64,000 nucleotides of DNA, from NCBI GenBank assembly GCA_022511075.1, contig JAFLSE010000004.1, forward strand, positions 38,187-102,186. Reading direction: 5' to 3'. This document shows, one piece after another, positions 1 through 45,651 of this stretch. How positions within the stretch are numbered: the stretch's first letter is position 1; every line of letters starts with the position of its first letter. A program made the translations under genes and the position numbers. Under the pieces are notes generated by a model. That model was not told the origin of the DNA. It saw nothing but the letters and a program-made list of their open reading frames with translations, and made no database searches. Source of the stretch: Prevotella sp. GTDB taxonomy: Bacteria; Bacteroidota; Bacteroidia; Bacteroidales; Bacteroidaceae.

Positions 1-60
1 ACAAAATCCTGCACACACAATCGATTGTGTGTGCAGGATTTATTGGAATTAATAGATATT

Positions 61-1209
61 TTATTCTTTGACAATTTTCCCTTGCCACAATCTTTGCAGA
101 AATTGCTCCACGGGCCACATCTCTATGCCATTAATCATTCGAGGACGCTCTTCCAAAGAAAGCAGTATGAGCTTAGCCTCTGGGTATTCCTCACCAAAGG
201 CTCGCAGTCCTTTGGTGTCGCCTAAAGAAACGGAAGCCGTCGACTTTATTTCAATGCCTATTTCCGCTTCACCAATAACGGCATCCACCTCGTACCTGTT
301 ATCTGAAGTGTGCCAATAAGTCAGTGTCTTGACAGGCATGCGATATGCCAAATATGCCCGTAGTTCTTGAATGACAAAATGCTCTAAAGCATGACCGTAT
401 ATGTCCGTGCCATGTCGGAGCGGTGTACGACGTAGCAGATGATTGGGAATAGCCACATCGAAATAGTAGAACTTTGGCGAAACCGACACTCGTCGTTTAA
501 TCACCTTTGTATATGCAGGAAGGAAAAAGCCGAGCATGGTTTCTTCAAGAATGGTAAAATATTCCTTAACCGACTTTGCCGACACTCCGCAATCTTGTGC
601 GATATTAGTATAGTTTACGATTTCGGCATTACTCAAAGCCGCAATTTGCAGGAAACGTGTAAAAGATTCCAGCTGGCGCACTATAGACTCCTCCACAATC
701 TCCTGCTGCAAGTAGTCGCCTATGTAGGCTTGAATCCTGCTTGTAGGGTTTTCTACAAGATAATGGCGTGGCAACATTCCATTGTTGAGCGCCCTGTTCA
801 GATTAAACTCTGGTATCTCGGCACTGACCAATGGGAACAAGGTACGGCGCAGGGCACGCCCTCCCAAAAGATTGGCTCCGCTGCGTCGTAGTTTGCGGGC
901 ACTTGAGCCACTAAGAATAAAACGCAAGCCCTTATTCTCTATGAGCCAATGAACCTCGTCAAGCAGAGCCGGAACTTTCTGCACCTCATCTATAATGACA
1001 AGTTCGCCATCGTCCAACATCATACATTCCTCACGCAATTGCGAAGGACGTATCTGCAACATCATGCGCAAGTCGGACTTTAGTAAATCATAGTAACGCG
1101 CGTTAGGAAAAAGGGCTTTCAACAAAGTGCTTTTCCCTGTCTGGCGCGAACCCCACAAAAAAAGACTGTCGTCCCTTGCCTCCTCAAGTTTCAATATACG
1201 CTCTAACAT
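61..1209 (-). CDS. AAA+ ATPase, AAA_14/DUF4143 family, with C-terminal PD-(D/E)xK-like motif
   Basis: Walker A GSRQTGKS, Walker B IIDEVQ, SGSS motif, C-terminal EVDAV...EIKS. Start moved from 1287 to MLERIL at 1209, downstream of the -7 box. Confidence 0.85.
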   Translation of the reverse strand: MLERILKLEEARDDSLFLWGSRQTGKSTLLKALFPNARYYDLLKSDLRMMLQIRPSQLREECMMLDDGELVIIDEVQKVPALLDEVHWLIENKGLRFILSGSSARKLRRSGANLLGGRALRRTLFPLVSAEIPEFNLNRALNNGMLPRHYLVENPTSRIQAYIGDYLQQEIVEESIVRQLESFTRFLQIAALSNAEIVNYTNIAQDCGVSAKSVKEYFTILEETMLGFFLPAYTKVIKRRVSVSPKFYYFDVAIPNHLLRRTPLRHGTDIYGHALEHFVIQELRAYLAYRMPVKTLTYWHTSDNRYEVDAVIGEAEIGIEIKSTASVSLGDTKGLRAFGEEYPEAKLILLSLEERPRMINGIEMWPVEQFLQRLWQGKIVKE

Positions 1210-1228
1210 ATATAATATATTTATGCTG

Positions 1229-1325
1229 CAAAGGTACAAAAGAAAATAGAAACCTGCAAATAAAACGACGAAAATCCGAAGTGACACTTCGGATTTTCAC
1301 TGATTTTCTGAAGTAGCACTTCAGA
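1229..1325 (-). promoter_or_regulatory. Bacteroidetes sigma-A promoter plus twin palindromic operator-like sites
   Basis: Minus-strand TTTG (1260-1257)-N20-TACCTTTG (1236-1229). Palindromes GAAAATCCGAAGT-gac-ACTTCGGATTTTC (1270-1298) and TCTGAAGT-agc-ACTTCAGA (1307-1325). Confidence 0.7.
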
Positions 1326-1379
1326 TTTTTACTATCTTAGACAATTTAGGATATATATCAAAACTTTCAAAAAAGATGC

Positions 1380-2534
1380 TTAAAGCACCTTCTTGTAAAG
1401 TTCGCGAATGTCCTCTATGGTTACATCGCGCGGGTTGCCCGGCGTGCAGACATCGGTAATTGCCTGTTGTGCAAGCGCCTCAATGTCGGTTTCCTTTATG
1501 CCAAGGTCTGTGAGGTGCTGTGGAATGCCAACCTTTATTGCCAATGCCTTCACAGCATCGCAGGCAGCCTGTGCAGCTTCCTCAGCACTCATACCTGTAG
1601 TATCAACACCCATAGTGCGTGCTATAACGCCATACTTCTCTATGCAGCAAGGCTTGTTCCACTCCATTATCGTTGGCAACAGCAATGCGTTGGCAACTCC
1701 GTGAGGAACATCGAACAAACTGCCCATTGGGTGAGCCATACCGTGAACGAGTCCAAGACCAACGTTTGAGAAAGCCTGTGCAGCAATATATTGTGCAAGA
1801 GCCATACCCTCGCGTGCAGCTTCGTTTGAAGGCTCTTCCACGGCTGTTGGCAGATTCTCGGCAATCATCTTTATAGCCTGCAACTCATACATGTCGCTCA
1901 TTACCCAAGCACCACGGGTGATATAGCCCTCGATGGCGTGTGTGAGAGCATCCATACCTGTTGCTGCGGTGAGTCCCTTCGGCAGAGAGTACATCAATTC
2001 TGGGTCTACGATTGCTACGGCAGGAATGTCGTTAGGGTCTACGCACACCATCTTTGCCTGACGATCCTCGTCAATGATAACATAGTTGATAGTTACCTCA
2101 GCACCTGTGCCGGCTGTTGTTGGCAGTGCTATGATAGGCACACTCTTGTGCTTTGTAGGAGCAACACCCTCAAGGCTCACAACATCTGCAAATTCAGGAT
2201 TGTTTGTAACAATACCAATACCCTTTGCTGTGTCCATAGGAGAGCCACCACCGATGGCAATGATGCAGTCGGCACCCGATGCCTTGAAAGCCTCAACACC
2301 CTGCTTAACGTTTGTCACTGTCGGGTTTGGCTTTACTTCGCTGTATATCTCGTATGGGAAGCCTGCCTCATCAAGCACGTCGGTCACCATCTTCACAGTA
2401 CCTACCTTTATCAGTCCCTTATCTGTTGTTACGAGGGCTTTCTTCAATCCCATGCGTTCAATCACTTCCGGCAACTGCTTGCGAGCACCGGCACCGAAAT
2501 ACGAAACTTCGTTCAGAATAAATCTGTTTACCAT
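1380..2534 (-). CDS. fucO: Lactaldehyde reductase (iron-containing alcohol dehydrogenase)
   Basis: MVNRFILNEVSYFG N-terminus, GGGSPMD, PTTAGTGAE, and HAIE/HGMAHP/HG metal ligands typical of FucO. Confidence 0.9.
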   Translation of the reverse strand: MVNRFILNEVSYFGAGARKQLPEVIERMGLKKALVTTDKGLIKVGTVKMVTDVLDEAGFPYEIYSEVKPNPTVTNVKQGVEAFKASGADCIIAIGGGSPMDTAKGIGIVTNNPEFADVVSLEGVAPTKHKSVPIIALPTTAGTGAEVTINYVIIDEDRQAKMVCVDPNDIPAVAIVDPELMYSLPKGLTAATGMDALTHAIEGYITRGAWVMSDMYELQAIKMIAENLPTAVEEPSNEAAREGMALAQYIAAQAFSNVGLGLVHGMAHPMGSLFDVPHGVANALLLPTIMEWNKPCCIEKYGVIARTMGVDTTGMSAEEAAQAACDAVKALAIKVGIPQHLTDLGIKETDIEALAQQAITDVCTPGNPRDVTIEDIRELYKKVL

Positions 2535-44412: not shown

Positions 44413-44416
44413 TGAC

Positions 44417-44503
44417 AATTCCAAAAAAGTTACGACTTTTTAGGAATCAATTCCAAAAATATCATAACTTTTTTGGAATTTAGTAGAATTTTCCATATCT
44501 TTG
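44417..44503 (+). promoter_or_regulatory. Twin palindromes and sigma-A promoter of the second AAA ATPase gene
   Basis: ATTCCAAAAAAGT-tacg-ACTTTTTAGGAAT (44418-44447); AATTCCAAAAA-N10-TTTTTGGAATT (44449-44480); TTTG (44472)-N20-TATCTTTG (44496). Confidence 0.7.
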
Positions 44504-44523: not shown

Positions 44524-45651
44524 ATGATACATAGGACTATAGAAAACAACATACGCACCCTTCTTGGGGGACAAAAGGCAATAATACTCATAGGGGCAAG
44601 GCAAGTGGGAAAATCTACATTGCTCAACCAAATGCTTGGAAACACCAGTGATGTAATGTGGCTGAACGGAGATGACACGGACGTGCAAGACTTATTCAGT
44701 GAAATGACATCAACCCGAATGCGTGCATTATTAGGCAATAACAAAACACTAGTAATAGACGAGGCACAACGTATTCCTGACATCGGACTGCGCATAAAAA
44801 TCATAGCCGACCAGATAAAAGACGTGCAGGTAATCGCCACAGGAAGCAGTTCATTTGAATTGACATCGAAACTTAACGAGCCGCTTACTGGTAGAAAGCG
44901 TGAGTTTAAAATGTTTCCACTTACATTTGCAGAAATGGTTAGCCATACAAGTTTCCTTGACGAAATACGCATGCTGCCTCACAGAATGGTCTACGGTTAT
45001 TATCCAGAGGTTGTATGCAATACAGGAGACGAGCAAGCCACGCTGAAAGAACTAACAGACAGCTACTTGTATAAAGACATAATGTCGCTCGACGGCATAA
45101 ACAAGCCCGACCGCCTCGTACGATTGTTAAAGGCACTTGCATTGCAGATAGGCAGCCAAGTGTCATACAACGAAATAGGTAGTTTGATAGGAATTGATGC
45201 AAAGACGGTGGAGCGTTATATTGAAATTCTTGAAAAGTCGTTCATCGTGTTTCGCCTCGGCAGCTTTTCACGCAACCTGCGCAACGAACTGAAAATAAGT
45301 CGTAAGATATATTTTTGGGATCTTGGTGTGCGCAATGCCGTAATTGGCAACCTTGCACAGATAGAAAACCGCACAGACACGGGAGAGTTGTGGGAAAACT
45401 TTGTCATTGCCGAGCGCCTGAAAAGGAATACCTATAAAGGCAGTTTCGCCCAATCGTGGTTTTGGCGCACGCGACAGCAGCAGGAAATTGACTACGTTGA
45501 GGAGGAAAACGGAAAGATTTCCGCTTTTGAGTTTAAGTGGAATGAGCGCAAGGCAAACGTAAAATGTCCGACAGCATTCAAGGAAACATACTCCGACTCC
45601 ACCTTCAATGTTATCACTCCCAAAAACATTGAGACATTCCTGCTTGATTAA
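44524..45651 (+). CDS. AAA+ ATPase, AAA_14/DUF4143 family (second copy, divergent)
   Basis: GARQVGKS, IDEAQR, TGSSS, C-terminal EIDY...EFKW; start at MIHRTIE. Confidence 0.88.
   Translation: MIHRTIENNIRTLLGGQKAIILIGARQVGKSTLLNQMLGNTSDVMWLNGDDTDVQDLFSEMTSTRMRALLGNNKTLVIDEAQRIPDIGLRIKIIADQIKDVQVIATGSSSFELTSKLNEPLTGRKREFKMFPLTFAEMVSHTSFLDEIRMLPHRMVYGYYPEVVCNTGDEQATLKELTDSYLYKDIMSLDGINKPDRLVRLLKALALQIGSQVSYNEIGSLIGIDAKTVERYIEILEKSFIVFRLGSFSRNLRNELKISRKIYFWDLGVRNAVIGNLAQIENRTDTGELWENFVIAERLKRNTYKGSFAQSWFWRTRQQQEIDYVEEENGKISAFEFKWNERKANVKCPTAFKETYSDSTFNVITPKNIETFLLD

Follow-up and report, generated by a model that had tools for sequence, protein, structure and literature searches.

The DUF4143 locus and its half-site array

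The DNA analyzed here, called the window below, is a stretch of 64,000 nt from Prevotella sp. (GCA_022511075.1, contig JAFLSE010000004.1, positions 38,187 to 102,186 of the forward strand). Close to its beginning, an AAA_14/DUF4143 gene (gene 1) follows a fucO-like gene, and the 170-nt spacer between the fucO-like stop (1380) and the ATG at 1209 holds two palindromes. The features of this locus and of a second DUF4143 gene in the window (gene 2) are as follows.

3-42, minus strand: perfect hairpin with a 19-bp stem (AAAATCCTGCACACACAAT cg ATTGTGTGTGCAGGATTT), directly 3' of the gene 1 stop; probable terminator of the module
61-1209, minus strand: gene 1, AAA_14/DUF4143 ATPase-wHTH-nuclease gene, 382 aa (Pfam and PADLOC match, alignment and structure model)
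1229-1236, minus strand: -7 element TAccTTTG, 20 nt after the -33 TTTG (read from the sequence)
1257-1260, minus strand: -33 element TTTG of the DUF4143 promoter, 7 nt past H4 (likewise read from the sequence)
1268-1282, minus strand: half-site H4, ACTTCGGATTTTCGT, promoter-proximal; head-to-head with H3, dyad centre 1284
1286-1300, plus strand: half-site H3, ACTTCGGATTTTCAC, tail-to-tail with H2
1300-1314, minus strand: half-site H2, ACTTCAGAAAATCAG, head-to-head with H1, dyad centre 1316
1318-1332, plus strand: half-site H1, ACTTCAGATTTTTAC, distal, least conserved among orthologues (position weight matrix scan and footprint)
1380-2534, minus strand: Fe-alcohol dehydrogenase gene (fucO-like), upstream of and outside the module
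44416-44480, plus strand: gene 2 array, four half-sites of the ATTCCAAAAAAGTTA type with a period of 32
44524-45651, plus strand: gene 2, second AAA_14/DUF4143 gene, 375 aa, 23% identical to gene 1

The ATG at 1209 is the true start of gene 1, as the N-terminus MLERILKLEE is common to orthologues. The protein carries a Walker A motif (GKST, residues 25-28) and a Walker B motif (DE, 74-75), its two Pfam domains score above the gathering thresholds (PF13173, 71.1 bits; PF13635, 110.9 bits), and it matches the PADLOC HMMs of PDC-S01 (E 9.4e-53), a single-gene system whose neighbours differ among loci. A search by sequence found no solved structure of the protein. An AF2 model, computed for the monomer without DNA (pLDDT 92, pTM 0.92), consists of an AAA+ core, a winged HTH (helices 200-207 and 211-223, beta wing around 227-249) and a C-terminal strand-rich domain with D309...E320-x-K322. 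D309 does not vary among 80 sequences, in which conservation of E320 and K322 reaches at least 90%, and the model has strands at 307-312 and 317-321, placing the predicted PD-(D/E)xK catalytic residues on a beta-strand core. Foldseek neighbours of the model are AAA+-winged-helix proteins, including RuvB, RFC, Orc1/Cdc6 on origin DNA and STAND NTPases. DUF4143 is listed among the PD-(D/E)xK superfamily folds (PMC3424549), and PDC-S01 (COG1373) is described as ranking fourth by frequency among the defence candidates of prokaryotes and first among single loci of rumen genomes, an extremely abundant, unvalidated candidate for which the published work covers abundance and domains only (PMC12988326, PMC13356809). 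Both proteins of the window match the PDC-S01 HMMs, and the PDC-S01 papers that we found mention neither upstream arrays nor DNA-sequence specificity; nor did we find a description of upstream arrays in the literature on DUF4143, PDC-S01, COG1373 or AAA_14.

The two palindromes, TCCGAAGTgacACTTCGGA at 1275-1293 and TCTGAAGTagcACTTCAGA at 1307-1325, lie 32 bp apart. The core TCYGAAGT-N3-ACTTCRGA matches exactly twice in the 64-kb window, at these two positions, where 0.04 matches are expected by chance, and none of 100 shuffles of the window contained two or more. In a repeat search the pair emerged as a 27-nt direct repeat with a spacing of 32 bp. Together, the match count set against expectation and shuffles and the repeat structure exclude a chance origin of the pair. 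The dyad centres at 1284 and 1316, the shared core and the adjacent -33/-7 promoter, all described in the original prediction, were confirmed. The proximal palindrome (1270-1298) is a perfect 14+14 and the distal one an 8+8. In a whole-genome search, the exact half-site ACTTCRGATTTTC and both full dyads were present at their own loci only.

When scanned with a position weight matrix derived from the upstream sequences of 92 homologous loci, the twin palindromes resolved into four 15-bp half-sites of alternating orientation, with the consensus ACTTCRGATTTTC. Their heads (ACTTC) face each other over a 3-nt spacer at 1316 and at 1284, and their tails (GATTTTC) abut between H2 and H3. Over the 92 homologous loci, which carry 1 to 8 half-sites per array, successive half-sites are 18 bp apart head to head in 89 of 91 junctions and 13 or 14 bp apart tail to tail; the unit recurs every 31 bp in 29 cases and every 32 bp in 62, values that bracket three helical turns (31.5 bp). 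A footprint made from the upstream regions of 19 orthologues, which share 76-82% protein identity and lie in unrelated contexts, gave the consensus ...TACTTC.GATTTTc...GAAt.T..GaAGTa..ACTTCAGATTTTCTgc..ttTTtcTTGc...TA.cTTTGC, in which nothing but the half-sites, the -33 box and the -7 box is conserved; the N3 spacers and the spacer between the two boxes vary freely. H4 is nearly invariant, and the promoter-facing H4 and H2 are the best conserved half-sites. The element is therefore a chain of alternating half-sites and not two equal perfect palindromes.

Promoters and transcription starts were assigned solely by consensus. A -33/-7 promoter consensus for Bacteroidetes was reportedly described by Bayley and colleagues in 2000, and the arrangement TTTG-20 nt-TAccTTTG read at 1260-1229 fits this type; in orthologues the -33 region is conserved as ttTTtcTTGc. 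On this reading, transcription of gene 1 would start near 1223, and the array would span about -46 to -110. Relative to the -7 box, the array takes discrete registers. Its edge falls at -46 in about 20 loci, including the Prevotella locus (1268-1332), and near -25 in a second subclade; in a third subclade the array begins within -4 to +3 of the predicted transcription start. The half-site array stands in fixed register with the promoter of the DUF4143 gene, and the three registers are new in the present analysis. A further candidate promoter, TTTG-19-TAAATTGT at about 1345-1375 on the upstream side of the array, was dropped, being unconserved in orthologues.

Gene 2 encodes a protein with both Pfam domains above the gathering thresholds (PF13173, 104.2 bits; PF13635, 144.1 bits) and a PDC-S01 match of E 9.9e-164. 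Its array is made of 32-nt palindromic units at 44416-44447 and 44448-44479 with the word ATTCCAAAAA...TTTTTGGAAT, which bears out the claim that the second DUF4143 gene has the same 32-bp geometry with another sequence. The -33 TTTG (44472-44475) lies inside the last half-site, and the -7 box is at 44496-44503. The same layout occurs in the gene 2 clade, with ATTCC/AATCC-type words and a period of 32-33 bp.

Association of the array with DUF4143 genes

Six same-genus orthologues of the fucO-like gene (69-78% DNA identity) have other downstream neighbours, and none carries the sites; four of the six possess a clear GC-rich terminator hairpin of their own that is unrelated to the array. Homologues of gene 1 were drawn from family genomes and 80 species genomes (sources include Prevotella, Sodaliphilus, Muribaculaceae, Paludibacteraceae and Prolixibacteraceae), with gene starts set by alignment; these relatives are non-independent samples. 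The best direct-repeat offset (at least 13 of 16 matches) was 31 or 32 in 50 of 75 homologue upstream regions, compared with 3 downstream regions and 0 shuffled sequences among the controls. Among 70 homologous loci, the upstream flank was similar in 6 pairs only and the downstream flank in 2, none of which involves the Prevotella locus. The gene itself is patchy, occurring in 17 of 200 family genomes and in none of 10 same-genus genomes; few of its homologues come from phage records (4) and many from plasmids (268). The array travels with the DUF4143 gene into genomic contexts that are almost always different. As the sites track the DUF4143 gene across contexts and are missing at the fucO orthologues, the moving unit comprises the array, promoter, ORF and terminator.

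We also noticed a 376-aa DUF4143 paralogue whose 170-nt upstream region is identical, letter for letter, in six genomes of four genera (L152-L157); it suggests that the paralogue spread horizontally very recently, with a mobile element as the probable carrier.

The palindromes could also be nothing but RNA or DNA hairpins, either a fucO terminator or insulator placed before the DUF4143 promoter or, in some clades, leader attenuators. At the Prevotella locus, the proximal palindrome forms a 14-bp stem (H3 and H4) followed by the U-rich CGUCGUUUUAUUU and is terminator-like on both strands, and no other fucO terminator is visible in the spacer. However, fucO orthologues use unrelated hairpins, the sites follow the DUF4143 gene into contexts that have nothing to do with fucO, and half-sites of the same orientation resemble each other more than those of opposite orientation (0.86 versus 0.75; 22 of 29 loci). 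Moreover, the invariant H4 has a partner, H3, that drifts without compensation, and many paralogues have purely direct repeats; hairpins would also leave unexplained why there are two copies of one word at exactly 31-32 bp. Across relatives it is the sequence that is conserved, not the pairing, even though stem and U-tract are present at the Prevotella locus. These data render a role as hairpins only unlikely, although the H3/H4 hairpin may well double as the fucO terminator at the Prevotella locus. They also speak against the outcome that would have undone the original prediction, namely, hairpins serving solely as that terminator.

The layout extends to other DUF4143 genes, although its period is not universal. 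The Prevotella genome contains 16 DUF4143 matches, and inspection by eye together with an unbiased whole-genome scan (17-of-20 direct repeats, offsets 20-60) revealed 2-4 repeats with a period of 32-33 bp just upstream of 13 of them, the word differing each time. Conversely, 13 of the 18 non-trivial repeat loci found genome-wide at offsets 32-33 sit upstream of DUF4143 genes. At many paralogues the repeats are purely direct and incapable of forming hairpins. In an order-wide sample with one locus per family, a period of 31-33 bp was present in 7 of 27 loci; several others had about 22 or 44 bp, and many were without a clear repeat. The enrichment of the geometry upstream of family members that had been foreseen is thus seen at both levels, among the paralogues and among the homologue upstream regions, and the word likewise behaves as foreseen, differing between protein clades and being the same within a locus.

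Other repeats were also observed. In the same genome, direct repeats TTCGTGGGAACTTCTCAAA and ATTTTACCCCCACTTTTGTC with 31-33-bp spacing occur at C64:71708-71768 and C81:8493-8546 with no adjoining DUF4143 gene. A REP-like multi-copy element with a 22-bp period and TCTTGCAGCG..CGCTGCAAGA palindromes lies at C1:91691-91755, C119:36241-36306, C130:44690-44732 and C24:32568-32633, and one copy of it is located between two DUF4143 genes on C1. Further 22-bp-period arrays of 4-6 copies have their own words, for example TATGTTCAAGTGTCAAAGAACC (C13:27859-27981, C1:149519-149618 and C119:55446-55548). An abundant heptamer-like satellite (TTAGTGA / TTCAGTG / TTAGTGT; contigs C3, C69, C71, C75, C77, C78, C100, C103 and C104), often at contig ends, yields 21- and 35-bp periodic matches, and similar heptamer-like runs flank the hairpins downstream of fucO in relatives (L041).

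Orphan arrays and turnover of the ORF

A scan of metagenome contigs for pairs of exact strong half-sites with the correct spacing yielded 69 arrays, 63 of them with room downstream. The cognate gene follows in 28 of the 63, at a distance of 58-94 nt and with 65-88% identity, whereas 35 intact arrays have no DUF4143 gene downstream (L187-L253 set; L254, L255 and L258). The 35 orphans reduce to roughly 20 lineages, owing to near-identical contigs, and represent array-keeping events only, the kind that this search can find; whether arrays are spared when the gene is lost lies beyond its reach. This count, like the half-site geometry, is new in the present analysis. Twin sites were also present in 7 of 401 family genomes, where 2 of the 7 arrays are orphans (G049 and G134); the sole homologue found in these two genomes is more distant and interrupted by a stop. 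No match to the twin site was obtained in viral contigs, where phage-borne decoy arrays were sought.

Four kinds of orphan were distinguished. In the first, array and promoter run into what is left of the C-terminal part of the gene (L243, L249, L201 and G318); in the second, the array and half of the -7 box are joined to a terminator (L189, L207, L226 and L234); and in the third, array and promoter stand before unrelated genes, e.g., those for a DnaB-like helicase or a 455-aa hydrolase-like protein. The fourth kind is a second array downstream of an intact gene. This second array, seen in L207 (1740-1830 and 3500-3600) and L223, is diverged and accompanied by a partial promoter; the resulting direct repeats are 88% identical over 60 nt in L207, and the two arrays of L223 are 3546 nt apart. 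Direct repeats that bracket a module would offer a possible route to loss of the ORF by recombination.

The orphan arrays show frequent and recent loss of the DUF4143 ORF, the pattern to be expected if a defence or selfish gene carries a cost, and suggest that its gain and loss are fast. Since they persist without the gene, conservation of an array does not strictly require the gene in cis. A single in-frame stop (TGA, TAA or TAG) was seen in three homologues of gene 1 (L021, L022 and L034, from G134, G178 and G049, respectively), which would be a further sign of frequent inactivation in the DUF4143 family.

An alternative reading of these observations is that the arrays are recombination or mobility sites used in gain and loss of the cassette, rather than transcriptional operators. 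It draws on the second arrays downstream of the gene at L207 and L223, on the solo arrays from which the ORF is cleanly missing (the second kind above), and on the patchiness and ever-changing contexts of the gene. Yet most loci have an array on one side only, as does the Prevotella one, whose genome holds no second copy, the module has no associated recombinase, and the deletion end-points are heterogeneous, some leaving C-terminal gene remnants. Around either module of the window, we found no flanking direct repeats, target duplication or second array of the sort that transposon ends would display. Furthermore, the precise register with the -33 and -7 boxes points to transcription. We thus regard mobility sites as an improbable explanation and operators as the preferred one.

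A probable self-regulatory operator of PDC-S01

Repeated, dyad-bearing sites in fixed register with the promoter of a candidate regulator's own gene are what an operator would look like. On the sequence evidence, the arrays are probably bound by the encoded PDC-S01 protein, which would regulate itself; this is the reading that we favour, with some reserve. The strongest argument is one of exclusion: the word is private to each locus and common to all half-sites of that locus, and DUF4143 is the sole constant neighbour, which together point to the gene's own product as the binder. Another regulator of the host, either a global factor or one of fucose metabolism, has in its favour that the sites adjoin fucO, but 13 paralogues in one genome have 13 words, each unique to its locus, and across 70 contexts only the DUF4143 gene stays constant, so that we give this option very little credence. 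The autoregulation through paralog-specific operators about three helical turns apart that had been put forward in the original prediction is in turn supported, all the computational tests suggested with it having turned out favourably.

Two residues of the protein vary with the half-site head. Residues 210 (S) and 212 (K) lie at the N-terminus of the predicted recognition helix (211-223, AF2 model). Half-site position 5 is C in 41 loci that have K212 and in 3 that have N212, and it is T in 25 loci where residue 212 is P, V, S or T, with no cross cases. In clade 1, D210 pairs with C at half-site position 4 (ACTCC or ATTCC); N212 pairs with ACTGC and H210/T212 with ACTCTC. The pairing of D-x-K with TCC (A[AT]TCC) recurs in the distant gene 2 clade, at 23% identity. 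Contacts of Lys to guanine and of Asp to cytosine are chemically ordinary. These covarying characters represent about 4-5 independent changes on the tree, and phylogenetically independent pairs for K212 and position 5 gave a non-significant p of about 0.5, with too few events. In a partial Mantel test, the whole HTH correlated weakly with operator distance (r 0.16, reached by 9 of 2000 permutations), no more strongly than the rest of the protein did. A position-by-position comparison of the HTH over 15 aligned paralogues of the Prevotella genome was of no use, the region being too divergent.

We propose the array as the cis-regulatory element of a module made up of array, promoter, ATPase-wHTH-nuclease ORF and terminator. 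The winged HTH, through recognition helix 211-223, would read the variable head of the half-site (ACTTC), and conserved parts of the protein, perhaps K238/R239 in the wing, would contact the A/T-rich tail (GATTTTC). Protomers placed every 31-32 bp on one face of the helix would interact, with the AAA+ domains possibly adding nucleotide dependence, and assembly on the array would then set the activity of the adjacent promoter. The identity of the binder, its oligomerization and the sign of regulation are all drawn from sequence features. Repression that holds down a potentially toxic nuclease is the favoured direction, because the promoters come close to the consensus, a nuclease is what the gene encodes, and the -33 box or the start lies under the array in two subclades. 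At the Prevotella locus, the array stops at about -46 and thus short of the -33 box, on its upstream side; a classical repressor would not sit there, and the sign is uncertain at this locus. A published hint that members of the DUF4143 family are regulated comes from Thermus thermophilus, whose DUF4143 gene TT_P0211 is up 6.6-fold when plasmid DNA and Argonaute are both present (PMC4406477).

A bolder version of this mechanism, which we consider doubtful, would make DUF4143/PDC-S01 proteins sequence-programmable binders with a code relating residues 210/212 to positions 4/5. The array would then be a parking platform for an inactive oligomer, whose release or titration by infection or foreign DNA would couple derepression with nuclease activation, and orphan arrays would be footprints of turnover or extra docking sites.

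The array recalls several known systems. In restriction-modification systems with controller (C) proteins, an HTH protein encoded by the unit binds tandem palindromic operators (C-boxes) cooperatively at system-specific sites and restrains the nuclease. Tandem palindromic, system-specific operators at the promoter of a nuclease-encoding unit are found here as well, with binding predicted; unlike C proteins, however, the DUF4143 HTH is part of an ATPase-nuclease and has no methyltransferase partner, and unlike C-boxes, the array consists of 15-bp half-sites chained at a period of 31-32 bp. NrdR boxes, two palindromes of roughly 16 bp about 31-32 bp apart, bind a repressor that changes its oligomeric state with the nucleotide it carries. 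They match the array in geometry, with palindromes three turns apart in a promoter, but NrdR combines a Zn-ribbon with an ATP-cone and uses one word per regulon, whereas the DUF4143 protein combines AAA+, wHTH and PD-(D/E)xK domains and each gene has a private word. The array is a member of neither the C-box nor the NrdR family.

Two further likenesses concern replication. As in archaeal Orc1/Cdc6 (PDB 2qby and 2v1u), which reads dyad-containing DNA, an AAA+ domain, a lid and a winged helix are present, and Foldseek matches to these proteins had E about 1.5e-5 with low TM-scores of about 0.28; in contrast to Orc1/Cdc6, origin features are absent, the protein has a nuclease domain at its C-terminus, and the sites are at the protein's own promoter. 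Plasmid iterons are phased, element-specific repeats beside the gene of a Rep initiator and serve in autoregulation. Phased, element-specific repeats likewise adjoin the gene of the presumed binder here, but the modules are chromosomal and single-gene, lack replication features and have alternating half-sites; the Prevotella locus lies in the chromosome between fucO and an unrelated gene, and its protein is an ATPase-nuclease, not a Rep.

PDC-S01 is reported to be among the most abundant defence candidates of bacteria and archaea, and the array offers a first concrete handle on how it works. From the array one would predict that the central winged helix binds DNA in a sequence-specific manner, with the residues and bases that would set the specificity, that the protein assembles cooperatively at three-turn spacing, and that the nuclease is under tight self-control.
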